DNA from: Candidatus Methanoperedens sp.
Lineage (GTDB): Archaea; Halobacteriota; Methanosarcinia; Methanosarcinales; Methanoperedenaceae
DNA: 32,000 bases
Assembly: GCA_041494705.1 (NCBI GenBank)
Contig: JBGQBI010000001.1
Coordinates: 1-32,000 of the forward strand
Direction: 5' to 3'
The position numbers were made by a program, and so were the translations under genes. How positions within the stretch are numbered: position 1 is the first letter of the stretch; every line of letters starts with the position of its first letter. The notes under the pieces were generated by a model that made no database searches, was not told the origin of the DNA, and worked only from the letters and a program-made list of their open reading frames with translations. Positions 1,420 through 19,154 of this stretch are shown here, piece by piece.

Positions 1420-4170
1420 TCACCCCTTTAATTTGATGCGCTTCAAGAGCAGCGTGTTCATAGTCACTGTGACAGAACTTGCAGCCATCGCTGCTGCTGC
1501 CAGCGCAGGATTAAGCAACCCTGCTGCTCCCATGAACGGATACAGTATGCCTGCAGCTATCGGGATTCCCACCGAGTTGTAGAAGAAAGCCCAGAAAAGG
1601 TTCTGCTTTATTTTATTAAGCGTGAGCCTGCTCAGCCGTATTGCTTTTGCCACATCGCGCACGTCGTTCTTTATCAGCACAATCTGGGCAGATTCGATAG
1701 CAACATCAGTGCCGCTCCCTATGGCTATACCCACATCAGACTGCGCAAGAGCCGGGGCATCGTTTATACCATCGCCCACCATCGCCACTTTTTTGCCTTC
1801 AGCCTGGAGTTTCTTGATCTCAGCCGCCTTATCTTCGGGAAGAACCTCTGACAAAACCATGTCGATGCCCACTTGTTTTGCGATTGCATCAGCCGTTCTC
1901 CTGTTGTCGCCTGTTATCATGGCAACAGAGAAACCCATATCATGCAGTTCACGCACAGCCTCGGCTGAATTCTCCTTAAGGGTATCGGCAACCGCGATTA
2001 TGCCCGCTATTTCGTTATCGAGCGCCACGAGCATTGCAGTCTTCCCCTCATGCTCAAGTTCCTCAAGCTTTCCCGAATGAGGCGTAATGTCCATTCCGTA
2101 CTCGGTCATCAGCTTTCGCGTTCCGATAAGCACTTTTTTCCCGCCGTATTTTACCTCAACGCCGCGGCCCGGTATTGCCTTGAACTCCTCTGCGTCTGGC
2201 ACAACTATGCCGCGTTCCTTTGCGCCTTTGAGGATGGCTTCACCGAGGGGATGCTCCGACCCCTTCTCCGCTATGGCGGCAAGCCTCAGCACCTCGTCCT
2301 GGGTGCCTTTTATGGCTATCACATCGGTGAGCGCAGGCTCGCCTTTTGTGAGCGTGCCGGTTTTATCGAAGACGATGGTATCCAGTTTTTGCGCCTTCTC
2401 AAGCACCTCGCCGCCCTTGATGAGAATGCCGTTCTCCGCGCCTTTTCCTGTTCCCACCATGATAGCGATAGGTGTCGCCAGTCCCACAGCGCACGGGCAG
2501 GAGATGATGAGCACTGTTATGGAAATCAACAGCGAGAAAAGGAAAGGGGAAGTCAGCCCCATCCCGGAGGTTGCAGGCACATTGAATTTCTCAAACCCGA
2601 TGAAGAACCAGAAGAAAAACGTAAGCAGCGCAAGTATATGCACAGCGAGGATGAAATGCCCCGCCACTATATCGGCGAGTTTCTGTATCGGCGCCTTGCG
2701 GGTCTGGGCGTCTTCCACCAGTTTGATAATCTGCGAAAGTGCGGTGTCCGAGCCTACCTTTGTCGCTTTGAACTTTATCATGCCCGTTTTGTTCATTGTG
2801 GCGCCGATTACCAGAGAGCCTGCCGTTTTCTCAACAGGTATGCTCTCTCCGGTGAGCATGGATTCATCAACCGCCGTGAGACCATCGACGACCCTGCCAT
2901 CGACAGGTATTTTTTCACCCGGTCTCACAACAACAATATCATCGACCTTCACATCCTCGACAGGTATTTCCTTCTCTTCCCCGCCAACGATGATGCGTGC
3001 GGTCTTTGCCGCAAGCCCCATAAGCTTCCTGATGGCTTCCGAGGTCTTTCCCTTGGTGAGCGCCTCAAGATACCGCCCGAGCACGATGAACATGATAAGC
3101 AGCGCAGCGGTATCATAATAAGTATGCTTGTACGCCTCGCCGAGGTCAAGGAATGTGGCTGCAACACTGATGGTATAAGCCGCGCCCGTTCCCGTTGCTA
3201 TCAGGAGATTCATGTCAGTCATGCCGTGCCTTAAACCTTTATAAGTGCCCTCAAAAAACTGCCGCCCGGGGAAGAGCATCACGATTGTGGCAAGGATGAA
3301 AAGAACATAATCGTTTTTCAGTATTTCGGGCACGAATGCCCATTCCATGTTGCGCCCCATGTCACCGAGAGATATCGGGACAGCAAGGAGAACCGCAATG
3401 ATAAGATTAATCCTCTGTTTCTTTATTTCCTCTTCGCGTGCCCTCTTTTCCCTGTCGGCATCCGATTTTTCAAGTTTCTCGGAAGCCGTGTAGCCCACAC
3501 TCTCAATTGTTTTTATCATGTCTGATACCGAGATGAGTTCAGGGTCGTAGGTAATCCTTGCCCGCTCAAGCGGAAAACTGACATCAACAGAAACAATACC
3601 GCCTGTTTTCTTAAGCGCAGTCTCGATATTGAGCGCACAGGCAGCGCAATGCATCCCTCCAATCTTGAGCGTGATATCGCTCTTAGCCACGCCGTATCCC
3701 AGGGAAGTTATCACGCTTTCCAAGCTTTGCGGCGTCACCTTGGCAGCGTCGTATTCCACGCTTGCTTTTTCAAATGAGAAGTTAACGGATGCGTTTTTCA
3801 CACCTTCTGTTTTTATTAACGCCGTTTCGATGTTCTGGGCGCACGAAGCGCATGTCATCCCTGTTATCTTCAAAGAGATTTTTTTTAACCCGCTTTCTTT
3901 AATCTCAACCTTAGTTTCAGGTATAACCACCTGCTTTACCGGAACAGGGCAGGCTTCCCCCTCATCTATTACTTCATACCCTGAAGAAGCGATAGCCGTT
4001 TTTATTGTCCCAAGGTCTGTGACATTTGTGTCAAACGACACCTTTGCCTCGCCTCGCTTAAAATCGGATGAGGCTTTTGTCACCCCTTTAACACTCATTG
4101 CGGCTTCAGTCACTGTTTTTTCGCAATGGCCGCACATCATGCCTTTGATTTTAATTACAACGTCTTCCAA
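1420..4170 (-). CDS. copA: Copper-translocating P1B-type ATPase with three N-terminal HMA domains
   Basis: Three MxCxxC motifs (GMMCGHC, GMTCASC, GMHCAAC). CPC in [11 protein letters not shown], phosphorylation site FDKTGTLT, hinge [11 protein letters not shown] start preceded by GGAGA. Confidence 0.95.
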
Positions 4171-4297
4171 TGATATTCTCCAGACTTATTTGTGGACTTG
4201 ATAATATAATACTTATCAGTTATGTTTGTTCTGGTTTAAAAAATAAGAAAAATCTCGAATTGAATCTTAATTTTTGAAAATATACGGAATATTTTCT

Positions 4298-5101
4298 TTA
4301 CGCGATATCCTTTGTAGTATCTATCTGAACACCGTCTCCGACCTTGAACCTTATCATTTCAATCGACGGGACTCTTCCCCTTATTTTCGGTATTGAAAGC
4401 CGGTTAGAAATCTTTTCCGAATTTTTTTCAGAATCCACATCAAAAATCACGTCACAGGATTTTAATATTTCATTTTCAAGATTCTTTTCATGTGTATCCT
4501 TGAGGCCGTATAAAAAAGTCAGGCAATTAACGCTTTTTGTTGCCTCGTATATCAAATTGATGAGCCGTTTGATTGATCCCGGATTAACGTTCAGGTTCAG
4601 GTAGAAAGAGAACGAGTCAAAAATTATGTTTATATCCTGTTCTTCTTCAGCCACTATTTTTTTCAGGTTATATTCCGTGAATTCCACTATCTTGGCATCG
4701 ACGAATTCATTGCCAATATTATCAACCATATCTCCATGGGACGAGATATAATACTCACTGTATATATCCACAAATGTAATATCATCTGTTTTAAAACCAA
4801 AATTCTGGATATCATGCATTACATATACCGGGCGCCTTTCATTTGAAAAATAATAGCTTTTGCGGGCCTGCGTGAATTGGAATAAGAAAACTTCAGCCAT
4901 GGAAGTGGCATCGGCGTGTATATAGGCAACAGAACCCGATGGCAATCCGCCTCCGAGGGTACGGTCAAGAATAGATATGCCTGTGGTCCGGTTTTGTTTT
5001 TGGGGAACCCCATTCAAGATTGAAACTGCCAGCGGGCTAGTACTTTGGGAAGGTTTTTTATTGACAGTCCCTGCTAAAGATATTCTTTTTCCGTTTGCCA
5101 T
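4298..5101 (-). CDS. KaiC/RecA-superfamily ATPase-like protein with degenerate Walker A
   Basis: GISILDRTLGGGLPSGSVAYI matches the KaiC/RadA-type lead-in. ADATSMAE replaces the expected GxxGxGK[ST]. A Walker B-like IIFDSFS is retained. Confidence 0.7.
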   Translation of the reverse strand: MANGKRISLAGTVNKKPSQSTSPLAVSILNGVPQKQNRTTGISILDRTLGGGLPSGSVAYIHADATSMAEVFLFQFTQARKSYYFSNERRPVYVMHDIQNFGFKTDDITFVDIYSEYYISSHGDMVDNIGNEFVDAKIVEFTEYNLKKIVAEEEQDINIIFDSFSFYLNLNVNPGSIKRLINLIYEATKSVNCLTFLYGLKDTHEKNLENEILKSCDVIFDVDSEKNSEKISNRLSIPKIRGRVPSIEMIRFKVGDGVQIDTTKDIA

Positions 5102-5181
5102 TTTTTCCCTTTTTTTATAATAGAGTTATTTTTTTCTGGCTTAATATAGTTTACTAAAAATGCATGATAATAATGATGAGA

Positions 5182-6846
5182 TTAAAATAAGGTTTTAGGT
5201 TTTTGTGCTTTCTTCTTTACATTGCCGGATTTTTTCAAGGAACCCAAACACATTTCCATACCTTTAATCGCTATTTGGCTTTCAGGATTTAATTCAAATG
5301 CCATTTGATAACTTTTAAGGGCCTCTCTGATATCCCCTTTTTTATAAAGCGCATTGCCTTTATTATTTAGAAATACATAGTCGTCCGGGTCGATTCCCAG
5401 CGCTTTATCATAGCAGATTATTGCCTCATCGATTTTTCCTGATTTTGCAAAAGCAAGACCTTTATTGTTCCAGGCGATGGTATTTTCGGAATCTATCAGA
5501 AGCGATTTATTGAACGAATCGATTGCATCTTCATATTTTTTCATGGAATACAACGCATTTCCGGTAACAAGGTGATCTAAAGCTTTTTTGGCTATTTCAT
5601 GACCAGGCGCAGGCTTTTTTTGTTGAGCTTTCGGCGCCGGTTTTTCTATCTTAATAATTTTTCTTTCAGGGGGAGGTTCGATAAATGCCTGTTCCTCGAT
5701 ACTCTTAACGGGAGCAGGTTCGGGTTTAATTGTTTTCGGTTCAGGTTGCTTAGTGATAGCTTGTTCAACAGGATGATGTTTGATTATTTTCTGCTCCTTG
5801 AAACTCTCAACAGGAGCGGGTTCAGGAATTATGGCAACTGGCTCCGCTTCAGGCTGTGGCAGCTCAATAACCGGCTGTTCAACGACTTGCGGTTCTATAA
5901 ATGCCTGTTCTTTGATGGTTTCAGCAGGATGTTCAGGCATCTTGGTAACGGTTTCTGGCTCTGGTTCAGGTTGCGGAGGCTTAATAACTGGCTGTTCAAC
6001 GACTTGCGGTTCGATAAATTCCTGTTCTTTGATGGTTTCAGGAGGAGCAGGCTTTTCAACTACTGCCTCTTGCATCGGTTCAGGCTTCGGAGGCGTAATG
6101 ACCGGTTGCTCAATAAACGGTGGTTCGATGGCAGGAGCCGCCTCCTCTTCTTTCGGTATGGATGAAGCAATCTTTTGTAAATCGATTGTTTCAGCGTTCT
6201 GCTTCATTTTTGCAAGAGCGAGCCCTTTATTGCTCCATATCTTCTCAACTTTCGGGTTTATTTCAAGAGCCTTATCATAGGATTCTATAGCCTGGGCGAA
6301 CCGGTTAAGTTTTACAAGAGTCAATCCCCTGTTATTCCATACTGTCTCGTCCCCGGGATTGATTTCGATTGATTTGTCATACGCACGAAGCGCCTCTTGA
6401 AAATTGCCGCTCTCAAAATACACATCGCCCTTGCTGCACCATGCGGCAGCGTCAGTGGGATTTTTTTCAAGCAATTTATCATAACAGGCAATGGCCTCAG
6501 GCAGCCGCCCGAGCTGGGCAAGCGCAATGCCTTTATTATACATCACTTCTTCGTCATCAGGTTTGAGTTCAATGGCTTTATCATAACACTGTATGGCTTC
6601 TGAATATCTCCCGGTTCTTGCAAGTGCAAGCCCTTTATTATTCCAGACTTCGGTTAATTTTGGGTTTATCCCGAGGACTTTATCATAATACTTAATAGCC
6701 TCTGCATACATGCCGCTCTCAACCAGCTCATTGCCCTTATTGGCCAATACGCTCGCATCCGCGCCCCCAATGTCATTCATAGGCCCACCCGCATTTTCAC
6801 TTTCGGAAATGGGTTTCTTTCTCCTGAAAATCGTCTCAAATCCCAT
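5182..6846 (-). CDS. TPR-repeat protein with central Pro/Glu-rich repeat linker
   Basis: Multiple 34-aa TPR units (W.NKG.AL...G...EAI..YDKAL.I.P) at both ends. Central low-complexity P/E/Q/I-rich region. Confidence 0.9.
   Translation of the reverse strand: MGFETIFRRKKPISESENAGGPMNDIGGADASVLANKGNELVESGMYAEAIKYYDKVLGINPKLTEVWNNKGLALARTGRYSEAIQCYDKAIELKPDDEEVMYNKGIALAQLGRLPEAIACYDKLLEKNPTDAAAWCSKGDVYFESGNFQEALRAYDKSIEINPGDETVWNNRGLTLVKLNRFAQAIESYDKALEINPKVEKIWSNKGLALAKMKQNAETIDLQKIASSIPKEEEAAPAIEPPFIEQPVITPPKPEPMQEAVVEKPAPPETIKEQEFIEPQVVEQPVIKPPQPEPEPETVTKMPEHPAETIKEQAFIEPQVVEQPVIELPQPEAEPVAIIPEPAPVESFKEQKIIKHHPVEQAITKQPEPKTIKPEPAPVKSIEEQAFIEPPPERKIIKIEKPAPKAQQKKPAPGHEIAKKALDHLVTGNALYSMKKYEDAIDSFNKSLLIDSENTIAWNNKGLAFAKSGKIDEAIICYDKALGIDPDDYVFLNNKGNALYKKGDIREALKSYQMAFELNPESQIAIKGMEMCLGSLKKSGNVKKKAQKPKTLF
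5866..6046 (-). repeat. 117-nt (39-codon) tandem duplication inside the TPR gene
   Basis: AATAAC[CT]GGCTGTTCAACGACTTGCGGTTC.ATAAAT.CCTGTTCTTTGATGGTTTCAG occurs at 5866 and again at 5983. Protein-level unit is ETIKEQ.FIEPQVVEQPVI..PQPE. Confidence 0.85.
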
Positions 6847-6911
6847 ATCTCAATACCATTAAATATAATGAGCCAATTAATATTGCTTATCCTATTTAAT
6901 GTTTATTTATT

Positions 6912-6994
6912 GTTGAGAACCTGATTTTCCAAAATATTCTTGTGAATACTTTGCTTACCTGGCGCCTTTTGCGGTGTGCGATTTTATTCACCGC
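6912..6994. repeat. Dispersed intergenic repeat, copy 2, plus attached hairpin
   Basis: 6912-6968 matches 989-1046. It is followed by a 6-bp stem GCGGTG/CACCGC (6971-6994). Confidence 0.7.
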
Positions 6995-7173
6995 AGAGCG
7001 CGAAGGTCGAAAGTTAGTTTTAACTCGTAGGGTCAAGGGGTAGAGAAGTCCCCTTCTGAGAGGTAGGGGATGAATCGTACCCCTTGGGATATGCGATTTG
7101 ATAAAAGCCGAAAACACTTTCACCATGCTTACATAAAAACCATATCTATACAGATATAATCCAGATAAATACT

Positions 7174-8445
7174 ATGCGACTAACTGAAAAAATCAGGATA
7201 TACCCAACACCTGAACAGGAAGAAGTATTATGGCATCTATCAGAGCAATGCAGGCTAATATACAATTTTGCTCTTGCAGAACGAAGAAAAGAATGGATAC
7301 TCAATAACTTTCGAGCCGATTTTGAAGTATTCCCTTGGGGAAAACCATACTATGAAGTTGGATACAAGAAACAGCAAAACGATTTGCCGAAAATAAAAGA
7401 AAAGTATCCGAAATATAATGTTGTATATTCAAAAGTATTGCAGATGGCTATCCGAACCCTCAATGCTGATTACAGTTCATTTTTTGAGCAAAGAAAAAAA
7501 GGTGATACCAATGCACATTCACCTGGATTCAAAGGCAAAAACCATTTCACTACAATGATGTATAATCAATCCGGGTTCACAATCAAAGGATCAGAAATAT
7601 CGTTATCCCATTTTTATAATGAAGTGCCTCTTGTATTTGAATTATTGCGAAAATACAATAAAGTCTATCAAGTAAATGTCTATCAGGTTGAAGGAAAATA
7701 TTATCTTGGGATTGTTCATGAAGTTCCGGAAAAACCTTATGTCGATAACGGATTGTATCAGGCAATTGACCTTGGAGTCACAAAAACCATAACCGCTATA
7801 AACACAGAATCAAAATTCTATGAAGCTGTAAACCCAAGACCGGACAAATACTGGAATCCGAAAGTCGATGAACTTCAAGCAAGACGAGACCATTGTATCA
7901 AAGGAAGCAATCACTGGCAGAGACTCAATCGAGCAAAGAATAAACTTACTCGGAAATGTAGTAACCAGATAAAAGACATTCAGCATAAACTCACACGGAA
8001 AATGGTTGACAATACTAAAGCCAATACAATCATTGTCGGTGACCTTGATGTCAAGGAAATGGCTCAATCCAAAAATACAAAAATAACAAAGAAAGCTAAA
8101 AAGAGTCTCAACCGATCAACTCAAAATAATGGATATTTATCTCAGTTTGTTGGATTTCTAACCTACAAGGCAGCACTTATAGGTAAGAAAGTAATAGAAA
8201 TCGATGAGCAATACACTTCTAAGAAATGTTATGTTTGCGGAAAGAAACACGACATGCCTATCTGGAAGCGTACTATGGAATGTGATTGTGGGAATGTAAT
8301 TGATAGAGATAGGAACAGTGCTATCTTTATCATGTTACGATTTCTATCAAAAAATGCCATGTGGACTGGCTACCAACAATTTGTTGGTAATCTACGACAA
8401 ACAGGGCTTATGGTGCCTAAACAAGCACCAGAAGCATACTCGTAG
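7174..8445 (+). CDS. tnpB: TnpB (OrfB) RNA-guided endonuclease / IS605-family accessory protein
   Basis: 423 aa. RuvC triad candidates AIDLGV, IEIDEQYTSKKC and IDRDRNSA. Zinc finger CYVCG...CDCG. N-terminal HTH-like region. Confidence 0.92.
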   Translation: MRLTEKIRIYPTPEQEEVLWHLSEQCRLIYNFALAERRKEWILNNFRADFEVFPWGKPYYEVGYKKQQNDLPKIKEKYPKYNVVYSKVLQMAIRTLNADYSSFFEQRKKGDTNAHSPGFKGKNHFTTMMYNQSGFTIKGSEISLSHFYNEVPLVFELLRKYNKVYQVNVYQVEGKYYLGIVHEVPEKPYVDNGLYQAIDLGVTKTITAINTESKFYEAVNPRPDKYWNPKVDELQARRDHCIKGSNHWQRLNRAKNKLTRKCSNQIKDIQHKLTRKMVDNTKANTIIVGDLDVKEMAQSKNTKITKKAKKSLNRSTQNNGYLSQFVGFLTYKAALIGKKVIEIDEQYTSKKCYVCGKKHDMPIWKRTMECDCGNVIDRDRNSAIFIMLRFLSKNAMWTGYQQFVGNLRQTGLMVPKQAPEAYS

Positions 8446-8485
8446 GAAGCCCCATCCCGAAAGGGTGGGGTAGTTCACAGATAAA
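8300..8485 (+). ncRNA. Predicted omega/reRNA of TnpB (position inferred, boundaries uncertain)
   Basis: In characterised TnpB elements the guide RNA scaffold overlaps the tnpB 3' end and the right end. Here a CCCCA-T-CCC GAAA GGG-TGGGG hairpin sits at 8450-8470, just after the stop. Confidence 0.3.
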
Positions 8486-8592
8486 TACAAGAGTTGATAA
8501 GCGAAATTGTCCACTCTATAAGGATAATTTTTATCCCGGTAAAAATAAATATGGATATAATCAAACACTGGTAAAAACACAGGGAAATAGCA

Positions 8593-9114
8593 ATGACAAT
8601 TCAAATCGACGACCAGGGATGGGGTACGCCAGTTGGGGGGGTGGGTATCATAGTAGTGAGAAAAGAGACCGGGGAATTGCATTATGATATCGTCCCGATA
8701 GAGCATTTTGGAAAAGAAATGTTTAAGAAGAAGACATATAATACGGGAGCGCAAAACATAGTGGAGAAGGGGTTCATTAAACTAAAAGTCCAGCATGACG
8801 AGAATATCGAGATATGCTCAGGCTGTATCCACGATAAGACAATCGAGTGGTTGAAAACCGAGGGCTATAAATTCACAGTTATGAAAATTGACGGTATTGC
8901 CCAGCAGAAAGGGGAATCGATGTTCATCGAATATCTCCGCACTCTTGGCCTCCCGAATCCGCCCGCCATTGTCGGGGAAACAGTGGATGAATATAAAGCG
9001 CAATTTTTCTATATCATGGACTGGGTAAGAGAGGACCCGCAGGGAAGGAAGCATCTTTGCAAAACCGGGTGGAAGTATTTCAAGAAATTCTTTAAAGATA
9101 CGAATAAAGATTAA
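8593..9114 (+). CDS. Conserved hypothetical protein (weak RNase HII-like N-terminal motif)
   Basis: 173-aa ORF, 7 nt upstream of the NTPase gene. N-terminal IDDQGWGTPVGGVGIIV resembles the GIDEAGRGPVIGPLVVA motif of RNase HII. No further assignment is possible by eye. Confidence 0.6.
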   Translation: MTIQIDDQGWGTPVGGVGIIVVRKETGELHYDIVPIEHFGKEMFKKKTYNTGAQNIVEKGFIKLKVQHDENIEICSGCIHDKTIEWLKTEGYKFTVMKIDGIAQQKGESMFIEYLRTLGLPNPPAIVGETVDEYKAQFFYIMDWVREDPQGRKHLCKTGWKYFKKFFKDTNKD

Positions 9115-9121
9115 GAGTATT

Positions 9122-9646
9122 ATGGTTAAAAAATGTATCCATGTGGCTTCCCTGAACAAAAATAAGATAAACGCCGTTTGCGAAGTATTTCCCTCATATC
9201 TGGTGGAGGGGATGGAATGCAGGTCAGGCGTCAGGGAACAGCCTCTTTCTCTTGATGAGACAATCGAAGGTGCGGTATTCAGGGCAAAATCGATTTTTGG
9301 TGATTGCGAATATTCGGTGGGAATAGAAGACGGGATAGCCCCTGTGCCCTCCACACATAGCGGATATATGAACTTTTGCTGCTGTGCCGTGTACGATGGA
9401 GAGCGGGTTTTTCTGGGTCTTGGGCCAGCCTTTGAGTACCCGCCCCAATGCACCAAAAGGGTAATTGATGAGGGAATAACTATCTCAGAAGCATTTTTGC
9501 CAGTCTCAAATAAGCCTGAAATCGGATATGAGGAAGGCATTATTGGCTGGCTTACACGCGGAAAAATAAACAGGAAGGATTATACAAAAATTGCAGTGGA
9601 GATGGCGAAGGTGCAGATGGATAATGTTGAGCTTTATGAGCTTTGA
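9122..9646 (+). CDS. Inosine/xanthosine triphosphatase (YjjX / DUF84 family non-canonical purine NTPase)
   Basis: SGVREQPLSLDETIEGAVFRA and EGIIGWLTRGKINRKDYT match the YjjX motifs SGVPEQPFG..ET..GA..RA and GAIG..T.G...R. Confidence 0.8.
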   Translation: MVKKCIHVASLNKNKINAVCEVFPSYLVEGMECRSGVREQPLSLDETIEGAVFRAKSIFGDCEYSVGIEDGIAPVPSTHSGYMNFCCCAVYDGERVFLGLGPAFEYPPQCTKRVIDEGITISEAFLPVSNKPEIGYEEGIIGWLTRGKINRKDYTKIAVEMAKVQMDNVELYEL

Positions 9647-9648
9647 AC

Positions 9649-12600
9649 TCATACCGGGCACACAGGTGCCGGACATCCTCCTGCATATTCATCATCAGCG
9701 GATACAAATTGATCAACCCTGTCACCAAGATATAACACCTGCTGCGCCTTGCTCCCGTACCTGTAAACTGTAATTCCCTTGCATTTTAATTCATAGGCGA
9801 GCATGAACGCCTTTTCAACTTCCTTGATATCCACATCATTCGGGAAATTGATGGTCTTAGATACTGCGTTATCCGTATATTTCTGGAAAGCCGCCTGCAT
9901 CCTGACATGCCACTCTGGCGCTATATCAAAAGCAGTCACAAACACGCGCTTCACATCATCGGGCACTTCTTCAATTCCAGCGAGAGTTCCCTGCTTCGCG
10001 ATTTTCATCATCATCTCCTCGCTGTAGAAACCCCGCTCTTTCGCCACAGCTTCAAAATACGGGTTTATTTCAAGGAGTTTAGTCCCTTCCATGACATTGC
10101 GCACGAAAGAAACCGCAAACAGTGGCTCAATACCGCTTGAACAGCCTGCGATAATGCTGATAGTTCCTGTGGGAGCAACAGTTGTCACGGTGGAATTGCG
10201 TATTGGTTTCTTATACATGCTTCCCGGGAAATTCGGGAAAGCGCCCCGCTCAATCGCAAGTCTTTCTGAAGCTGCATGGGATTTTTCCTGGATGAATTTC
10301 ATAATCTCTTCGCCTGTTTTGAGGGCGTCTTCAGAATCGTACGGGATACCGAGCTGCACGAGCATATCTGCAAAACCCATTATCCCAAGACCGATTTTCC
10401 TGTTAGCTTTTGTAATTTCCTCAATCTGGGGAAGCGGGTATTTGTTGATATCTATTACATTGTCAAGGAACTTGACTGCATTGTTTATGATTTTTTCAAG
10501 GTTTTCCCAGTCGATTTTGCCATCCTTCACTATTTTCGCAAGGTTTATCGAACCAAGGTTGCAGGATTCGTAGGGTAAAAGCGGCTGCTCTCCGCAATCA
10601 AGCGACACGATTCCATTTGAAATGAAGCTCAAGGTTCTCGGCTCTGTTAAATCATATACAAGTTCCTTTCCATTTTCTTTTATATATTTTATTTTCTCTA
10701 CAAATTTGTCAGAATAAAATCCTTTTGTGAAAAATTTTCCGATTTTATCTTTATGCAGCCCGCACAGGAATCCGATGTCTCCTATAAATTTCATCACACT
10801 TTCTTTGCTGATTTCAAGCTCGAAACACACACCGCTTGAACCATATTTTCTCAGCTCCCCGCTCTTGTTGAGATAGCTGAACTTATTTTCTTCGGGTTGC
10901 CGGCTTCTGTCGTATATCCTTGATTTTATCCCTAAATTTAGCAGAAGTATTTGAACGTCTTTCAGCAGTCTCAGGGATTTTGAAGTCAGTCTTACGTATG
11001 ATGATTTATCCTTAATAAAATTAACAGTTCCATCAGCCGTGAACAGACCCTGCAAAAAACCGATAACAGCCTCTTTCGGCGCAATTAAAATACTTTCAGG
11101 GACTGTTTTGTTTCCACCATCCACAGCCCGAATGCCCAGCTTGATGAAAAAGTCCACGAAATGTTTTGAGTGGTATGATAAGTGATATACTCCATTCTCC
11201 CTTTTCACTTCTTTTATGTCAGAGCCATACCAGTAATTAATAATAGGTTTGAAATAGTCCATCACATTTTTATCTTGTTTTGAGAATGTGAACCCCACCC
11301 TTCGGTTTTTATCCCCGTCCCTGAGCCAGCCATCGCCAACCAGCCAGCCCAATACCTGACCCAATTCTTTGCTCCAATCAGATGGCAGGTTTAATCGGGT
11401 GATTTTTCCATTTTTCCCAACAAATTCATTTCCCGCATCGAATGGCAATTTGAAGTCATCGCTGAATCTCCCTTCACCGGATTGAATCGATATTCTGTGA
11501 ATCGTTGGATCCAAATCTATTGTTTTAACCCAGCCTTCAGGGGTCAGGATTTTATGGTCAGCAGTGCAGGTCAGTTCATATCCGGACTCTGTCTCTATTT
11601 TGTACGTCTCTTTTTCTCCAACACAAAAAGCCTTTATTATCTTATTGAAGCCAATCCCGGTTTGCTTTGAGCGCATCAAACTTATTGTCCCGCCGCTATT
11701 CACAATCCGGATTGGAACCTTGTTATCCGTGGCAATTCTGATTCCACCATCGGGGTGTTTTTCAATCAGGTCGCTCATTCTCATTAAGCCGTTTTCTGTC
11801 GAAATAAGCGTACTTCCGACAACGCACGGGTTTGTGCTTTCCATTTCCCCTACCTGCGGCGTGGGATTGTGCCTGTTAATCTCATCTATGAACACAACCC
11901 CCGGGTCGCCTGTCCTCCACGCCATTGTTATTATGAGGTTCCAGATATCTTTGGCCCTGACCTTCTTCACTATTTCCCTGTTCCGCGGGTTTATTAACCC
12001 GTATTCACCATCTTCCCTGACGGCTTTCATGAACTTATCATCCACCGCTACCGAGATATTGAAATTCGTAAGAAAACCCTCCTTTGTTTTTGCGGTGATG
12101 AATTCAATGATATCAGGGTGGTCTGCCCTTAGAATCCCCATATTGGCGCCGCGCCGCTTTCCTCCCTGCTTTATGATATCCGTGGTGGTGTCGAACACCC
12201 TCATGAAAGAAACCGGTCCTGATGCAACCCCTTTTGTAGATTTTACAATATCTCCCGAAGGCCGGAGGCGCGAAAATGAAAAACCCGTGCCGCCGCCTGA
12301 TTGCTGGATGAGCGCCATGCTTTTTACCGCATCAAAAATGCTCACAAGCGAGTCCTCGACAGGAATGACAAAACAGGCCGAAAGCTGTCCCAGGTCTGTA
12401 CCCGCGTTCATGAGTGTGGGCGTATTGGGCAGGAATTCAAGGTTTACCAGCATGTTGAGGAATTCATCCTCGGATTCGGGGTCAAGCGCCACGGCTTTTG
12501 CTATGCGCCGCAAAAGCCGAAGAGGTGTCTCAATCACCTTCCCGTCCTCATCTTTTAACAGGTAGCGCCTCTTGAGGACTCTTGCGGCATTAACACTCAA

Positions 12601-13063: not shown

Positions 13064-13158
13064 CAACAGCCGGATGAAGGAACACGGATTACACGGATGC
13101 GACGGATACGCACGGATTTTCATTGATTCCCTTCCATCTATTATCCCATACTTCTCCC
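13064..13158. repeat. CACGGAT-iteron element, copy A1
   Basis: CAACAGCCGGATGAAGGAACACGGATTACACGGATGCGACGGATACGCACGGATTTTCATTGAT...CCCATAC. Four [CG]ACGGAT units at 9-10 nt spacing. Matches 14259-14352. Confidence 0.75.
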
Positions 13159-13585: not shown

Positions 13586-14052
13586 GAGAAACCGACCCCG
13601 GCAATCCTTTTCAGAGTTTCTTCCGTATGCCTCTTTATGTAATATTTTTCATCCATATACATAGAAAGGAGCTTTGTTTCGAACTTTACTCTCTCTATTT
13701 CACTGGATTTTAAAATAATTCCATTTTTTATAATATTATATGCCAGAAGCAAAGGCGCTTCATTTAAAACGATCAAATCTATTTTGTTTTTCTTGATTAA
13801 AGCGGCTATTTCACCCATCAATTTTAATTCCAGATCGAAGCGGTCTTTTTTGGATAATTTTTCATCGAGCAGGACTCCAATATCAACATCGCTCAACCTG
13901 CCTGTATCGCCCCTGACTGTTGAGCCAAAAAGATAAGCAAGTATTATGCTGTCTTTGCTGCTGAAGTATTCTGTTAGTTCCTTTTCATATGGTATCATGA
14001 ATACTCTGTAATTTGTTTTTGCTAATATATGTTCTTCGCTCATGTGCAGCAT
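13582..14052 (-). CDS. mntA: MNT-family nucleotidyltransferase antitoxin
   Basis: LFGSTVRGDTGRLSDVDIGVL (GS...DxD polymerase-beta-type NTase motif). The true start may be the internal M of MIPYEKEL. Confidence 0.85.
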   Translation of the reverse strand: MLHMSEEHILAKTNYRVFMIPYEKELTEYFSSKDSIILAYLFGSTVRGDTGRLSDVDIGVLLDEKLSKKDRFDLELKLMGEIAALIKKNKIDLIVLNEAPLLLAYNIIKNGIILKSSEIERVKFETKLLSMYMDEKYYIKRHTEETLKRIAGVGFS

Positions 14053-14119
14053 CTTTCAGGCGGCAGCATAACAGGCGCAGGTATCGGTGGGGTTTGTATT
14101 GGGTTATAATTTTAAATCA

Positions 14120-14243
14120 TGGCGCCGGCAGGTCCCCGGAGCGGCGGACTGCTCTGAAAGCATGCAGGCTTGCGAAAAGGAGGGAGAGAGGCTTCCGCAG
14201 TCTATTGATAGATAGGGGTATGTGTTCTTAATCGGGTTGCGCT
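14120..14243. repeat. About 120-nt repeat B, copy 1
   Basis: TGGCGCCGGCAGG...AGCGGCGGA.TGCTCTGAAAGC.TGCAGGCTTGCGAAAAGGAGG.AGAGAGGCTTCCGCAGTCTAT...GGGGTATGTGT...AATC.GGTTGCGCT matches 15495-15610. The two copies differ by a 6-nt indel and a few substitutions. Confidence 0.8.
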
Positions 14244-14258
14244 GGTTAGTTAAACAGT

Positions 14259-14352
14259 CAACAGCCGGGTGACGGAACACGGATGACACGGATTCGACGG
14301 ATACGCACGGATTTTCATTGATATTTTTTCTATCTATTAACCCCATACCTCC
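14259..14352. repeat. CACGGAT-iteron element, copy A2, inserted between repeats B1 and C1
   Basis: CAACAGCCGGGTGACGGAACACGGATGACACGGATTCGACGGATACGCACGGATTTTCATTGAT...CCCCATAC. The segment 14244 to about 14377 is absent from the otherwise collinear copy at 15495-15700. Confidence 0.75.
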
Positions 14353-14377
14353 GCAATCTTCTCCTTTATCTTCCCCT

Positions 14378-14470
14378 AAAAAAGCTCGATCAGTTTCTTA
14401 TTTGCATCGACCAATTTCTGCTCCTATTCGATTCGGGCAACGATTTCCGCTCCCCGGGGAGGGGGCGGGA
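14378..14470 (-). pseudogene. Decayed 3' fragment resembling the conserved region of a type I R-M specificity subunit (hsdS-like), copy C1
   Basis: Minus-strand translation is VIPPPPRGAEIVARIE*EQKLVDANKKLIELF*. This resembles the HsdS conserved motif (PLPPLEEQ..IV..IE.E..LV...K.LIE.FE) but has an in-frame stop. Confidence 0.5.
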
Positions 14471-15164: not shown

Positions 15165-15380
15165 TTTTTTGTTATCCAAAGAGGCATGGAAGCGCAGAGA
15201 CATTCTTTTTATCGAATTCTTATATAAAAATTGCGGCGCATGCTATCCCCATGCAACCAATATCTATCAAAATACCGCGCTGCTGTCCTTCTCTTCTTTC
15301 CCGCAGGTGTGACAGCAGGAAAGGGGCGGGGTTATGAGCATGGTCGTTTGGTTTAAGAAATAGTATTCATCCAGACGAAA

Positions 15381-15420
15381 GGAACACGGATGACGCGGAT
15401 TGGACGGATACGCACGGATT
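15381..15420. repeat. CACGGAT-iteron element, copy A3 (shorter, diverged flanks)
   Basis: GGAACACGGATGACGCGGATTGGACGGATACGCACGGATT. Confidence 0.7.
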
Positions 15421-15494
15421 TTTTTATTAGCCGTGAAAATCCGATATAAGAGAGAGAGCACTAATAATTTTATATAATAATGGCAATTAAAATG

Positions 15495-15610
15495 TGGCGC
15501 CGGCAGGAGCGGCGGATTGCTCTGAAAGCTTGCAGGCTTGCGAAAAGGAGGAAGAGAGGCTTCCGCAGTCTATTTATGATGGGGGTATGTGTTTTTAATC
15601 AGGTTGCGCT
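15495..15610. repeat. About 120-nt repeat B, copy 2
   Basis: Collinear with 14120-14243. Confidence 0.8.
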
Positions 15611-15700
15611 CGAAAAGCTCGATCAGTTTCTTGCATGTCTCGATACAATTTCTGTTCCTCTTTAATTCGGGCAACGATTTGCTTTTTGATATCATGGAGT
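15611..15700 (-). pseudogene. Decayed hsdS-like 3' fragment, copy C2, immediately downstream of the 202-aa gene
   Basis: Minus-strand translation is LPLHDIKKQIVARIKEEQKL. After a frameshift it continues CIETCKKLIELFERNLIKNTYP. The DNA is collinear with 14378-14450. Confidence 0.5.
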
Positions 15701-16408: not shown

Positions 16409-18832
16409 TTATTTATTCCATTCATAAATTTTATTACCACATCCGCATCTTATCTTTTTGCAAACTTCATCATAGTATTTTAGAGAAATGAATTTCTGAC
16501 AAGAACCGCAAAAAAATAAATCATCCAAATCTTTTACATCTTTCCAAAACGCTTTGAAATCATTGATGCTTGCAACAAATGTACTGTCGTGAGAATCTTT
16601 ATTGCCTAAAAATACGGACTTTAAAAGCCTGTCCAGTATTGCGCTATTCTTCAACACCAAACTTGGCTGTTTATTGATTTTATTTTTAAGTTCAGTTAAA
16701 AGTTCATAAGCCATTCTATCTTCATTTGTATCATTATAGACAAACTTAACCTTAACTTCTAAATTAAATGCAATGTCTTTGAGTCTATGCTCAAGATATT
16801 TTCTACAATCATTACCTAATCCTGTTTCGTCATTTGTTTTAATCTTATGCTCTATTCTTTCTTTTAAAGTCTCAAAAGGTTCATCAATGTAGGTTCCTCT
16901 ATCTTCACTCCATTTTATAGTGTTAACTTTCCAGTTTTTCCCCTTCACTAGGTTTTTAACAATATCAAACCAATTTTTTTCGTGAGTTAATAAAATAATT
17001 TGATAATCAGAAAATTTTTCAACTAATAGATCAGCAAAGCGTTTTCTATGGCTTGTGTCCAGACTTGATATCACATCATCAAGAATAAAGAATTTATTCT
17101 TTTTATTAAATGCTTTAACAGAGGTAAGAAAGAAAGCTATTCCGAAACAATTGAGGTGGGATTCGCTTAAATATTTATGAGGCGGTGAAACCTCATTTTC
17201 AAAAAACTTAAATTGGAATGTTATACCTGCTAAATCATCATCTTTTTCAAGAGGAATTAATTTTATATCCTCAACTTTTTCATCTGGATGCATAAATTGA
17301 TATAGACTATTAATATCCTTCGAAAAGATAGAAAGGAAAGATTCCAAACCCTCTTTTTGTTTTTTTGCAAACTCACTATATACTAATTCTAATGATTTTA
17401 TTTGATTATCTAATATTTTTCTTTCTTTTGTTAACTTCTTAATTTCAAAATATGCATTTCTTGATAATACTATCTTACTATGAATATCAAATTTAAGATT
17501 ATCCTTTTTGTTCGTCTTTAATTGCTCGTTCTTTTCTTTACAGAAATCAACTATTTGTTTAAAGAGTTCTTTATCAATTATGAATTCATTTGCTATTTTA
17601 AGCTTTTGAATCTCAGAAATTTCAATATCTGATTCAGCTAAATAATTTTCAAAGCAAATATTTAACTTTCTAATTTTTATTTTTAATTCTTTATTATCTG
17701 CTAATTCAAAGTGCTTATCTGATAATAAAGGTTTAATTAACTGGTTGGAATCATTAAGTACTCTTTGTAAAGATTTTTTTAAGTCAATCAACCTTAATTT
17801 TTCTTTTTTGTATTTTTCTAATTCAATGATTCTAAGTTCTAATTCCTTTAATAACTCCTTTTTATTTTTGGGCTGCAAACACAGCGGACAATTGTTATCT
17901 GTAATAATATTCCGTTTTAAAACATCTACACCTACAGATAATAGTGTTTCTAATTCGATTTTATTTATTTTTTCAATATCAGTAATTATTTTTTGAAATT
18001 GGTCATAATATTTTTTATAAGATTCTTCTATTTCACCAAGCCTGTTGGATAAATTAGAAATAAGATCATTTACGTTGCTATAAAATGATTGAATTGCCAC
18101 TATTCTAGAATCATCAGGTTCTTTGATTAATGTTAAAATACTATCTATATCATCGATTTTTGTTAATTCTTTATCAATACCTAAAAGTTTTATCAGTTTG
18201 TTTATAGAATCAATAAATTGCTCATCAGATGTTATATTGTGCCCGATATGCTCTATAATATGAGCTTGTTGGGCATTAATCTGGTTATCAAACTTTTGTA
18301 ATTTGAGTTCCTTTTTTAGTTCATTAGTAATTTTTCTTAATATATCTCTAGTGCCTGTGACCTCTGAAAACCCAATAATATTAGAAAGCTCGATTAATTT
18401 CTCGGATTTCGGGGCTAAAATAAAATTCATTAAATCTTCATAGCGTAAAATGATATTTTCGTTTTTGGAAGCCTTTAGAAAATCAACGAATTCATTTGAA
18501 TTATTTGAATATTCAGAAGTATAGGAGCCTTTTTTTAAATAGATGCATTTATACGAATTAAATTCTTTGTCTGTAAATTCAATGTTAATAAAAGCTTTTT
18601 CATCATCACCTAAAAAGAAATTTCTTAAAGCAGCTATACCCCCCCGCCCGATTTCTTCACTTGCCAAGTGTTCTATTCTGTCATAATAAAACCACTCAAA
18701 TGCATCTGAAATACTGCTCTTACCAGTGGCATTATCACCATAAAGCAAAACAGATTTTTCATCTATATTTAGTGATAAATTTGATTTAATTCCTCTAAGG
18801 CCATTTATATTAAAACTTTTAATTTTTGCCAT
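16409..18832 (-). CDS. Rad50/RloC-like ABC ATPase with coiled-coil zinc hook, C-terminal HEPN-type (R-x4-H) domain and terminal zinc ribbon
   Basis: Walker A GDNATGKSS (aa 32-40). About 400 aa of K/E/L/I-rich coiled coil with NCPLCLQ (C315/C318) at mid-point. Signature LSESHLNCF, Walker B FFILDDV, H-loop LLTHE, RKYLEH (aa 677-682), CGSC...CGCG (aa 775-798). Confidence 0.85.
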   Translation of the reverse strand: MAKIKSFNINGLRGIKSNLSLNIDEKSVLLYGDNATGKSSISDAFEWFYYDRIEHLASEEIGRGGIAALRNFFLGDDEKAFINIEFTDKEFNSYKCIYLKKGSYTSEYSNNSNEFVDFLKASKNENIILRYEDLMNFILAPKSEKLIELSNIIGFSEVTGTRDILRKITNELKKELKLQKFDNQINAQQAHIIEHIGHNITSDEQFIDSINKLIKLLGIDKELTKIDDIDSILTLIKEPDDSRIVAIQSFYSNVNDLISNLSNRLGEIEESYKKYYDQFQKIITDIEKINKIELETLLSVGVDVLKRNIITDNNCPLCLQPKNKKELLKELELRIIELEKYKKEKLRLIDLKKSLQRVLNDSNQLIKPLLSDKHFELADNKELKIKIRKLNICFENYLAESDIEISEIQKLKIANEFIIDKELFKQIVDFCKEKNEQLKTNKKDNLKFDIHSKIVLSRNAYFEIKKLTKERKILDNQIKSLELVYSEFAKKQKEGLESFLSIFSKDINSLYQFMHPDEKVEDIKLIPLEKDDDLAGITFQFKFFENEVSPPHKYLSESHLNCFGIAFFLTSVKAFNKKNKFFILDDVISSLDTSHRKRFADLLVEKFSDYQIILLTHEKNWFDIVKNLVKGKNWKVNTIKWSEDRGTYIDEPFETLKERIEHKIKTNDETGLGNDCRKYLEHRLKDIAFNLEVKVKFVYNDTNEDRMAYELLTELKNKINKQPSLVLKNSAILDRLLKSVFLGNKDSHDSTFVASINDFKAFWKDVKDLDDLFFCGSCQKFISLKYYDEVCKKIRCGCGNKIYEWNK

Positions 18833-19154
18833 TTATCGCTTCTTCTCTAAGCTCTATTAATGCATTAAAAATTTGTTTTTCGTTAAATTTATTATTCTGA
18901 TATAGTCCTATTAAAGCATCTGCAATCTTCGGATCAATTCCGGAAATTTCTTTTAAACCATCAAAAAATTCGTCTAATATCTCCTTACCACTCTTAATTG
19001 TGTTACTCATTTTTCGTCTCCCTTTTTTCAAAATAACTCCATCTATTTTAAAGTTAATATCCAATTCATTTTGTAAAATCTCAAATTCTGTTTTATTGTT
19101 ACAGCTTGGATATTCACCATAATTTCTTACCACCTTTTTAATATTAAATCCCAT
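18819..19154 (-). CDS. Small hypothetical protein, first gene of the AT-rich cluster
   Basis: 111-aa ORF overlapping the ATPase start by 14 nt. An alternative start is M49 (19010), preceded by GGGAGA, giving 63 aa. No recognisable motif. Confidence 0.5.
   Translation of the reverse strand: MGFNIKKVVRNYGEYPSCNNKTEFEILQNELDINFKIDGVILKKGRRKMSNTIKSGKEILDEFFDGLKEISGIDPKIADALIGLYQNNKFNEKQIFNALIELREEAINGKN

Follow-up and report, generated by a model that had tools for sequence, protein, structure and literature searches.

Organization of the locus

The window analyzed here comprises the first 32,000 nt of a contig from Candidatus Methanoperedens sp. (JBGQBI010000001.1). It carries an 807-aa ORF whose product, hereafter the ATPase, combines a Rad50/LmuB-like coiled-coil ABC head with a C-terminal, probably HEPN-like domain and a zinc ribbon (Table 1). 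Upstream of it are geneB, whose last 14 nt overlap the beginning of the ATPase gene, and what remains of geneA, which in relatives encodes a GIY-YIG-like nuclease. The ORF had been noted in a sequence-only reading of the window, and every motif string quoted there is present in the translation.

Table 1. Features of the locus, all on the minus strand (-), with positions within the window
Feature	Residues	Position	Basis or comment
geneA remnant, last ~48 codons		19026..19184	tblastn with 44 full-length geneA proteins
geneB, 63-aa helical protein		18819..19010	true start is M49 of a 111-aa ORF
ATPase ORF, 807 aa		16409..18832	third gene of the family operon
Walker A / P-loop GDNATGKSS	32-40	18713..18739	G37, K38 and S39 invariant, n=119
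Ascending coiled-coil arm	142-306	17915..18409	AlphaFold2 helices, short breaks
CPLC zinc hook	315-318	17879..17890	C315, P316 and C318 invariant; apex loop
Descending coiled-coil arm	324-514	17291..17863	AlphaFold2 helices
C-terminal lobe of ATPase head	515-630	16943..17290	invariant motif residues and SMC_N
Signature LSESHLNCF	555-563	17144-17170	S556 and S558 invariant
Walker B FFILDDV	581-587	17072-17092	D585 and D586 invariant
H-loop LLTHE	614-618	16979-16993	H617 invariant
Family-specific helical domain	631-773	16514..16942	probably a divergent HEPN fold
R677-x3-E681-x3-K685	677-685	16778..16804	first long helix of the domain; contains RKYLEH
G743-N744-K-D-S747-H748	743-748	16589..16606	equivalent of HEPN R-N-x3-H, Gly replacing Arg
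Four-Cys zinc ribbon	C775, C778, C796, C798	16430..16510	three beta strands in models

A total of 382 homologs of the ATPase were found; one-genome-per-species data held 321 relatives, in about 200 clusters at 50% identity. The family is scattered patchily over many bacterial phyla and several archaea, and the pairing of a GIY-YIG gene with a 62-aa protein occurs in Bacteroidota and many other phyla. Source databases label the family protein hypothetical. In the window, the ATPase gene lies in a low-GC trough (25-30% vs ~45%) and is adjoined by an MNT/HepT toxin-antitoxin pair. Neighbors in relatives include type III R-M, GmrSD, OLD-like, AbiE and integrase genes, placing the family in a defense-island context; one of the four neighborhoods inspected (L081) contains no obvious defense island. 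Searches for integration signatures at the window island found no tRNAs and, as direct repeats, only internal intergenic ones, and Rfam gave no match there. A 202-aa downstream ORF was considered as a further partner and set aside, as it has no homolog in 77 related loci and forms a singleton cluster.

Pfam SMC_N matched the ATPase at 1.5e-12, with profile positions 135-210 covering the C-terminal lobe of the head. The top Foldseek neighbors were Rad50, SMC and JetC (best solved structures E ~1e-13), and sequence searches of the PDB returned matches to SMC and Rad50 only. Invariance was scored over 119 sequences at 45-86% identity, and the Methanoperedens protein retains all of the family-invariant residues. 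The Rad50/SMC-type head proposed from sequence alone is therefore borne out by the invariant motif residues and the structural neighbors, with one adjustment to the P-loop, whose range had been given 3 nt too short.

An AlphaFold2 model of the ATPase (pLDDT 84.7) placed CPLC in the sole long loop (residues 307-323), which joins helices 142-306 and 324-514 and constitutes the coiled-coil apex. The motif, NCPLCLQ in its longer form (residues 314-320, nt 17873-17893), had been proposed as an apical zinc hook, with coordinates that span CPLC alone, and the model agrees. CPxC is kept in 119 of the best 120 homologs and also in a clade at 21-25% identity, and Pfam Rad50_zn_hook matches relatives of the ATPase weakly. 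Because they are conserved, most of the motifs quoted from the sequence lie far beyond what chance would produce.

The C-terminal domain and zinc ribbon

An AF2 model of the C-terminal domain alone (pLDDT 81.9) had as its top two Foldseek matches the HEPN proteins 2q00_A and 2hsb (probability 0.93 and 0.97, E ~0.3), with TM scores normalized by target of 0.59 and 0.61, respectively; 2hsb belongs to a named HEPN family (PMC3710099). With Pfam, neither the window domain nor 30 diverse family domains gave a HEPN match, and zinc-ribbon matches alone were returned. A hhalign comparison with a HepT family profile of 120 sequences was not significant (P 0.17). An alignment to the window's own HepT had put GNKDSH on RNRLVH (P 0.025), a placement that the 120-sequence profile did not reproduce and that we therefore discarded. 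Exhaustive phmmer searching with the domain recovered matches only at the C-terminus of the same ATPase family.

The sequence-only reading had singled out RKYLEH (residues 677-682, nt 16787-16804) as a HEPN R-x4-H motif. This assignment fails: position 682 is His in 71/310 relatives (23%), and about 0.4 R-x4-H matches are expected by chance from the composition of the protein (R 3.1%, H 1.7%). Lack of conservation of these residues had been named in that reading as a ground for rejection, which H682 bears out in part. RKYLEH belongs to the domain's first long helix, off the canonical HEPN position, and the HEPN-equivalent site is instead GNKDSH. The case illustrates the limits of reading motifs alone, since the striking R-x4-H is a chance match and the real motif site looks degenerate. 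In contrast to H682, the other residues of RKYLEH that had been given weight are conserved (R677 in 299/310 and E681 in 306/310), as is K685 (289/314). The alternative proposal made for the same residues, an R-x3-E pair with a downstream His, holds as a residue pattern, with R677, E681 and S747-H748 conserved at 96-99%. E681-x3-K685 also matches a HEPN feature, as HEPN families have a conserved upstream acidic residue, typically Ex3[KR] (PMC3710099).

At the GNKDSH site (GNKDSHDS, residues 743-750), His is present at position 748 in 319/322 relatives (99%), Ser at 747 in 297 and Asn at 744 in 269. Position 743 is occupied by Gly in 179, Ala in 49, Thr in 29, Leu in 20 and Arg in 8, so that the canonical Arg occurs in 8/317; the aligned site reads RNKTSH in L034 and RNAFGAH in L076. 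Judged from sequence and model, the C-terminal domain is probably HEPN-like with a degenerate motif. As the canonical Arg is missing in ~97% of relatives and the S-H loop is modeled at pLDDT <50, the domain may be non-catalytic. Eleven of the best 120 family members do without it, yet have both geneA and geneB, which makes the domain an accessory and not part of the core.

The terminal ribbon (CGSCQK, residues 775-780, and CGCGNK, residues 796-801) was correctly recognized from sequence, although its boundary was misplaced at 16439. Its cysteines are found in 83/88 full-length homologs and are missing en bloc from a class of homologs of ~775 aa. Zn-ribbon Pfam matches in relatives are weak.

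Operon partners and loss of the nuclease gene

The gene order of the family is geneA (~150 aa), geneB (~62 aa) and ATPase. Among the 43 close-clade loci having enough upstream DNA, geneA lies upstream in 42 and geneB directly upstream in all 43, and independent gene calls at four further loci gave a geneA of 150-153 aa and a geneB of 59-65 aa. The geneA proteins of relatives share invariant G27-L-Y29, Y49-I-G51, R63, E108 and N126/127. PF20815 matched 22/24 members and PF01541 10/24, all under the gathering score (best E 2.6e-4), and a geneA profile found no solved GIY-YIG structure in the PDB. For geneB, no consistent Pfam or PADLOC family emerged; its identification as a helix-hairpin-helix protein is unproven, with HhH-type matches in ~5/28 members and the motif Gly unconserved. 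A distant clade in Acidobacteriota has a Ser/Thr-kinase-like protein accompanying the ATPase-HEPN-ribbon core, which appears to be modular.

We favor, with a probability of roughly 0.6, the reading that the ATPase is the sensor subunit of an uncharacterized three-gene defense-linked system.

Membership in Lamassu (LmuACB / ABC-3C), with geneA as a GIY-YIG LmuA, geneB as a minimal LmuC and the ATPase as an extended LmuB, seems unlikely to us. It would explain why the PADLOC LmuB model PDLC03859 is the best match, over the full length, for the window protein (4.4e-20, residues 4-635, profile 5-597 of 611) and for every relative tested. The order of effector, small protein and CxxC ATPase is identical to LmuA-LmuC-LmuB, and LmuA effectors and LmuC types are highly variable. 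LmuC and the LmuA C-terminal domain dock near the zinc hook (PMC12663957; bioRxiv 10.1101/2025.03.14.643221). However, true LmuB family members would be expected to score better than the 1e-20 to 1e-31 seen in relatives, and neither geneA nor geneB matched any PADLOC model at E<=10, LmuA and LmuC included. The size of the partners argues in the same direction, as the 150-aa geneA has a tail of only ~45 aa after the nuclease domain and LmuC is presumably much larger than the ~62-aa geneB. In the Lamassu literature sampled, the term GIY-YIG was absent by occurrence counts, and reading turned up no mention of an LmuB to which a HEPN-like domain and a zinc ribbon are fused. Finally, the partner of the core in the distant clade is the kinase-like protein instead.

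We consider it more doubtful still that the ATPase is a genuine RloC ortholog. Such an enzyme would be a stand-alone, zinc-responsive tRNA anticodon nuclease that excises the wobble nucleotide under the control of its own Rad50-like ATPase. The resemblance extends to overall layout and the ~800-aa size. The key residues of Geobacillus kaustophilus RloC are C291, R692, E696 and H737 (PMC2610378), and C315-C318, R677, E681 and H748 of the window protein are nearly co-positional with them. The RloC triad is described as Arg-X3-Glu-X36-52-His, and "Ser often precedes His" (PMC2610378), a pattern that the conserved R-x3-E and S-H of the ATPase family resemble. Some relatives score high enough on Pfam AAA_13, the RloC/PrrC family, to pass its gathering threshold (P0107, 44 bits; L064, 51 bits); several relatives adjoin R-M systems; one family fragment is named "wobble nucleotide-excising tRNase" by JGI; and the window copy lacks a nuclease partner.

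Several points speak against RloC. AAA_13 (PF13166) matched neither the window protein at E<=1 nor its last 300 aa at E<=10. Relatives score 39-51 bits on this model through the ATPase and coiled coil only, with alignments ending near position 580 of 713, the end of the ATPase head; the sole exception, P0122, reaches position 628, and no relative reaches the model end. The PADLOC PrrC model matched once (3.5e-6), in a distant relative and within its ATPase part. Between E and H lie 66 residues as opposed to 36-52, and the HEPN Arg, which PrrC reportedly requires (PMC3710099), is missing from the window protein. An operon with a GIY-YIG-like nuclease, as seen in the close relatives, is not known as an RloC trait, and the window gene stands alone only through truncation of that nuclease. 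The RloC-like character suggested by the sequence-only reading thus survives for layout and residue pattern, but membership in RloC is not established, given the missing AAA_13 match, the spacer, the better match to LmuB and the operon of relatives.

In the window, geneA is truncated. The 44 full-length geneA queries matched only via their residues ~98/104-151, and the catalytic GLY...YIG...R...E region is missing from the window. The remnant runs in frame into geneB through an ORF at 18819..19154. The truncation junction is common to the window and L078, a second archaeal copy, so that geneA loss is older than the divergence of the two; in the closest copy of the locus, even the remnant is gone. 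In the comparison with L078, dN/dS came to 0.16 for the ATPase and to 0.125 for its C-terminal domain, and geneB gave 0.21 (dS 0.33-0.74). By this measure, purifying selection still acts on geneB and the ATPase, and the Methanoperedens copy therefore most likely functions as an RloC-like module of two genes that does without the nuclease.

These observations make it improbable that the window copy is a decaying remnant of a defense operon that ceased to function once its nuclease was lost. Decay would be in keeping with a geneA that is reduced and read through into geneB, with the further loss in the closest copy and with the location of the gene in a low-GC island amid mobile-looking repeats. 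However, the 807-codon ORF is intact with its invariant residues in place, and the low dN/dS persists although the nuclease was lost before the copies diverged. A housekeeping role in DNA repair, as an ATPase like Rad50/SbcC or RecN, would fit the Rad50 and SMC structural neighbors and the zinc hook but is very improbable given the absence of an Mre11/SbcD-like gene from the window ORFs and from four Pfam-annotated loci, the patchy distribution, atypically low GC and defense or mobile-element neighbors, and a coiled coil much shorter than that of Rad50.

Proposed function and comparison with known systems

For the three-gene defense-linked system, we hypothesize the following mechanism, in which DNA sensing, activity of the HEPN-like domain and immunity itself go beyond the anatomy, conservation, gene order, truncation, selection and island context observed above. 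By analogy with Rad50 and LmuB, the ATPase would dimerize via its apical CPxC zinc hook, and the dimer would detect foreign or aberrant DNA. Head movements driven by ATP could next free the GIY-YIG DNase, or switch it on, in trans. The same movements may join two C-terminal HEPN-like domains into a module in cis that, as in RloC, cleaves RNA or else binds it, and the likely outcome for an infected cell would be growth arrest or death. In Methanoperedens, the nuclease gene was truncated before the copies diverged, leaving geneB and the ATPase-HEPN-ribbon protein.

A more specific version, which we put forward tentatively, is an undescribed defense family with features of both Lamassu and RloC, in which one zinc-hook, Rad50-like sensor would serve two effectors, a GIY-YIG DNase acting in trans and, in cis, a fused HEPN-like RNase that ends in the ribbon. 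The active site of this RNase may be non-canonical, with a His and no motif Arg. If correct, this arrangement would join nuclease release in trans (Lamassu) with control of a fused HEPN RNase (RloC), ideas that are usually separate.

Rad50-type coiled-coil ABC ATPases are emerging as common prokaryotic immunity sensors, as seen in Lamassu, Wadjet, RloC/PrrC and PbeABCD. The present ATPase family is large and carries no annotation, and two of its three genes have no PADLOC model. The archaeal copies that have lost the GIY-YIG gene and are under purifying selection represent a natural dissection of the system, in which it can be tested whether the HEPN-like tail serves as an effector by itself. 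If the proposed reading is true, persistence in Methanoperedens without the nuclease would show that the core can act alone.

Among known systems, Lamassu/DdmABC shares with the locus a Rad50-like ATPase, a short coiled coil, a CxxC hook, occurrence in defense islands and modular partner genes. It differs at Walker B, which is DD in the window protein, whereas LmuB usually has an E-to-Q variant according to one review. Rad50/SbcC-Mre11/SbcD is alike in coupling a zinc-hook coiled-coil ABC ATPase to a nuclease gene, but the ATPase family has extra C-terminal domains and a mobile defense-island context. Set against the published motif description of RloC (PMC2610378, Davidov & Kaufmann 2008), the window protein likewise has a coiled coil that splits the ABC head and an apical CxxC, and it differs in its extra terminal zinc ribbon and in having Gly for the Arg of the HEPN Rx4-6H motif. 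HEPN RNases of the HepT, AF0298 and PrrC/RloC types (PMC3710099) resemble the C-terminal domain in the His with a polar Asn at -4 and the upstream Ex3K, and a few members of the ATPase family (8 relatives) have the full R-N-x3-H. In contrast to these RNases, the window domain has a beta-hairpin before it and a zinc ribbon after it, and the absence of the Arg in nearly all of the family is comparable to Parep1/8, described as an exception among HEPN proteins (PMC3710099).

Operon organization in relatives and in the window

The window, from a Methanoperedens-like host, carries a nuclease-less form of a widespread, unannotated system of a GIY-YIG protein, a small protein, and a Rad50-like ATPase. 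We scanned one genome per species for relatives, obtaining 321, and fetched 77 loci. The ATPase family occurs in Bacteroidota, Proteobacteria, Nitrospirota, Dehalococcoidia, Patescibacteria, Acidobacteriota, Myxococcota, Methanobacteriaceae, Thermococci, and others. In the relatives, a ~150-aa gene (geneA) is followed by a ~62-aa gene (geneB) immediately upstream of the ATPase gene; Caldithrix abyssi (CM001402.1, 946151-966568) provides one example of the complete operon. Among the 43 close-clade loci with enough upstream DNA, HMMs detected geneA in 42 and geneB in all 43, and independent gene callers called both in four further loci. GeneA has invariant G-L-Y, Y-I-G, R63, H67, E108, and N126/127 residues and matches the GIY-YIG models PF20815 (22/24) and PF01541 (10/24) just under threshold; from its sequence, it is probably a GIY-YIG nuclease. 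GeneB encodes a small helical protein of no consistent family.

Upstream of the window ATPase, a 111-aa ORF consists of two joined pieces: residues 49-111 match geneB, with a stop that overlaps the ATPase start by 14 nt, and residues 1-48 correspond to the C-terminal tail of geneA alone. Using tblastn, geneA residues ~98-151 alone were recovered, and upstream of this remnant lies G-rich non-coding DNA. The predicted catalytic region of the nuclease is missing from the window. At the locus of the closest homologue (L078; 86% identity), which adjoins an archaeal PolD gene, geneB and the ATPase gene are present and geneA is wholly absent. Upstream of a junction common to the window and L078 copies, ~130 nt of their sequence is homologous, so geneA was truncated before the two diverged. 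Since that divergence, geneB (dN/dS 0.21) and the ATPase (0.16; C-terminal domain, 0.125) have been under purifying selection.

Architecture of the ATPase and its C-terminal domain

The motif strings quoted in the sequence-only reading are all present in the 807-aa ORF, with coordinates slightly off, and its anatomical description was largely right. Our homologue search returned 382 sequences, the best 120 at 45-86% identity. An alignment of 119 sequences shows no variation at the P-loop Gly/Lys/Ser, C315-P316-x-C318, the signature serines, D585/D586, or H617, and the window protein retains every family-invariant residue. The AlphaFold2 model built on this alignment (mean pLDDT 84.7) has ascending helices at 142-306 and descending helices at 324-514, with CPLC in the sole long loop (307-323) between these arms, which places the zinc hook at the predicted coiled-coil apex, as had been proposed. 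Among solved structures, the nearest are Rad50, SMC/cohesin/condensin heads, and JetC; PDB sequence matches are to SMC and Rad50 only.

Features of the ATPase (residues of its translation), the window (nt), and two related loci
Feature	Sequence or content	Position
ATPase ORF	807 aa	16409..18832 (-)
Walker A	GDNATGKSS	32-40
Zinc hook	CPLC	315-318
ABC signature	LSESH	555-559
Walker B	FFILDDV	581-587
H-loop His		H617
Proposed R-x4-H	RKYLEH	677-682
HEPN-equivalent block (putative)	GNKDSH	743-748
Zinc ribbon cysteine pairs		C775/C778 and C796/C798
GeneA remnant	residues ~98-151	19184-19026
Ribonucleotide reductase-like ORF	1090 aa	9649-12921 (-)
Type VII toxin-antitoxin pair	MNT, 156 aa; HepT, 138 aa	13169-14052 (-)
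Two overlapping small genes	95 aa; 109 aa	14515-15115 (-)
ORF directly downstream of ATPase	202 aa	15707-16315 (-)
Composite intergenic repeat		13064-13127, 14112-14446, 15366-15680
Small ORFs inside repeat		14013-14231 (+), 15480-15665 (+)
L078, PolD and 210-aa protein		2508-7481
L049, interrupted homologue		6001-9698
L049, C-terminal domain remainder		9324-9698

The C-terminal domain has no matches in Pfam, PADLOC, or NCBIfam, and when 1.8 billion cluster representatives were scanned exhaustively with HMMER, it turned up nowhere but at the C-terminus of ~800-aa proteins of the same family or in their fragments. We evaluated conservation over 334 non-redundant C-terminal domains pooled from all homologues and related loci. 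The headline claim that RKYLEH is a HEPN R-x4-H motif was rejected: H682 is His in 71/310 domains, and ~0.4 matches are expected by chance given the 3.1% Arg and 1.7% His of the ATPase. Near-invariant positions are R677 (299/310), E681 (306/310), K685 (289/314), and H748 (319/322), along with R706, E710, N744 (269), and S747 (297).

A domain-only AlphaFold2 model (pLDDT 81.9, pTM 0.73) consists of a beta-hairpin, a helical bundle, and a three-stranded ribbon. Its top two PDB matches by Foldseek are the HEPN proteins 2hsb (AF0298; probability 0.97, TM 0.61 by target, rmsd 3.4 Å) and 2q00_A (probability 0.93), with MntA-HepT toxin chains further down the list; all matches have E-values of at least 0.28. 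In an alignment of relatives at 21-36% identity, the family block [G/A]-N-x-x-S-H aligns with R-N-K-T-S-H and R-N-A-F-G-A-H from two related loci (L034 and L076, respectively), which read as canonical HEPN R-N-x3-4-H motifs; 8/317 members carry the Arg at the canonical position. The HEPN superfamily is described as having Rx4-6H with a polar residue after the Arg and an upstream Ex3[KR] (Anantharaman et al. 2013, PMC3710099), including one family that kept the His and lost the Arg (PMC3710099), and both the aligned block and E681-x3-K685 fit this description. Together, these two features point to GNKDSHDS, and not RKYLEH, as the HEPN-equivalent site. An earlier motif-on-motif alignment with HepT was dropped after failing against a 120-member HepT profile (hhalign, P 0.17), leaving homology unconfirmed at the sequence level. 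The original HEPN call is thus probably right for the domain and falls for its motif. We put the probability of a HEPN fold at roughly two in three and that of catalytic activity well below this.

Among the best 120 homologues, the full-length form accounts for 88; in 19 (~775 aa) the zinc ribbon alone is missing, and in 11 (~650 aa) the C-terminal domain is missing entirely, with geneA and geneB kept. By these length classes, the HEPN-like domain and ribbon are accessory modules added to a conserved ATPase core. The hook, C-terminal domain, and ribbon all persist in a distant clade (21-25% identity); there, geneA is absent, as is geneB except for one marginal match (L073, E 0.0035). In its Acidobacteriota members, a conserved ~760-aa gene with a Ser/Thr protein kinase-like N-terminus (GSGGMGDVY...HRDLKPGN) lies about 13-85 nt downstream of the ATPase gene (L053, L059, L070, and L074) and appears to stand in for the GIY-YIG and small-protein partners. 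Separately, one Acidobacteriota homologue (L049) is interrupted by an insertion with transposase-like ORFs: the ATPase ORF stops at 652 aa, the remainder of the C-terminal domain lies ~1.4 kb downstream, and geneA is on the opposite strand.

Genomic neighbourhood

The window ATPase gene sits in a GC trough (25-30% vs about 45% around) and has an MNT/HepT pair and a further small two-gene cassette as neighbours, a typical defence-island context. Of four complete operons in relatives, L079 neighbours a type III R-M system; L080, GmrSD, an OLD-like ATPase, and a methylase with Vsr; and L082, AbiEi/AbiEii, a type III R-M system, and recombinases. Defence genes are not obvious around L081.

The MNT nucleotidyltransferase (Pfam Polbeta, 1e-21) and HepT HEPN RNase (Pfam, 5e-32; canonical RNRLVH motif) have close homologues mostly in Methanoperedens and Methanosarcinales. 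The overlapping small genes, possibly another toxin-antitoxin cassette, encode a 95-aa protein with a weak match to DUF4258 (toxin-like) and a 109-aa protein whose N-terminus bears a CxxC...CxC zinc ribbon and which weakly matches the MqsA antitoxin. The 202-aa ORF has a PD-(D/E)xK-like pattern by eye (IDIAIG ... AVEIEGRADRK), no Pfam, PADLOC, or NCBIfam match, and no counterpart in the related loci, and it forms a singleton cluster in a 15-billion-protein collection. L078 encodes an intein-bearing PolD large subunit (DP2) and, after it, a 210-aa protein that carries a zinc ribbon at the N-terminus and a PD-(D/E)xK-like 'PDFVV...YFVEVKFR', the latter also by eye; an unrelated nuclease-like gene would therefore adjoin both archaeal copies. 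The 1090-aa ribonucleotide reductase-like (RNR) ORF contains an apparent intein, judged by eye from an 'NPCVVGSTLI' junction and a LAGLIDADG-like 'LGWLVGDGW' segment.

A composite repeat recurs between the cassettes (RNR / HepT/MNT / 109-aa and 95-aa pair / 202-aa gene / ATPase); its blocks share 78-94% identity and abound in CACGGAT-like heptamers. A similar 'CACGGATGACCGGAT...TACGGAT' stretch precedes the geneB-ATPase cassette of L078. The repeat has no Rfam matches and has the look of MITE-like or cassette-boundary DNA, and the small ORFs it contains are probably spurious.

Comparison with Lamassu and RloC

The PADLOC model of the Lamassu ATPase LmuB (PDLC03859) aligns along its whole length with the window protein (4.4e-20) and its relatives (1e-20 to 1e-31), and the operons follow the same order of effector, small protein, and CxxC ATPase. 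In Lamassu, an LmuB dimer and LmuC keep LmuA, the effector, sequestered close to the zinc hook and release it upon DNA-end sensing (PMC12663957; bioRxiv 10.1101/2025.03.14.643221). The operon order, LmuB-like ATPase, and Rad50-like fold point to a similar logic, and the whole mechanism that follows is inference. GeneA would be the released DNase, with its conserved ~45-aa C-terminal tail, the sole part remaining in the window, as a candidate docking element. The fused HEPN-like domains, one per head, could be joined or separated by ATP-driven head engagement and form an RloC-like, RNA-directed second arm, with the zinc ribbon binding nucleic acid or stabilizing the domain dimer. In the Methanoperedens copies the second arm alone would remain, and the dN/dS values suggest that it is still useful.

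The sequence-only reading had likened the protein to RloC, a tRNA anticodon nuclease with ABC motifs, a coiled-coil/CxxC insert, a C-terminal triad, and tRNase activity (Davidov and Kaufmann, PMC2610378). The triad is Arg-X3-Glu-X36-52-His, "where Ser often precedes His" (PMC2610378). Compared by published residue positions, C315-C318, R677, E681, and S747-H748 are strikingly like C291, R692, E696, and H737 of G. kaustophilus RloC (PMC2610378); however, the Glu-to-His spacer is 66 residues, outside the RloC range. The window protein has no match to Pfam AAA_13. AAA_13 scores in relatives rise as high as 51 bits, reaching the gathering threshold, with alignments ending near profile position 580/713, the end of the ATPase head, except in the homologue P0122 (to 628); none reaches the model end. 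The PADLOC PrrC model is barely touched by the family. Given these results and the end-to-end LmuB alignment, RloC identity is not supported. The ATPase may work like RloC, and the analogy serves reasonably as a working model. We would place the system, as a variant, among the Lamassu/RloC-type coiled-coil ABC defence systems.
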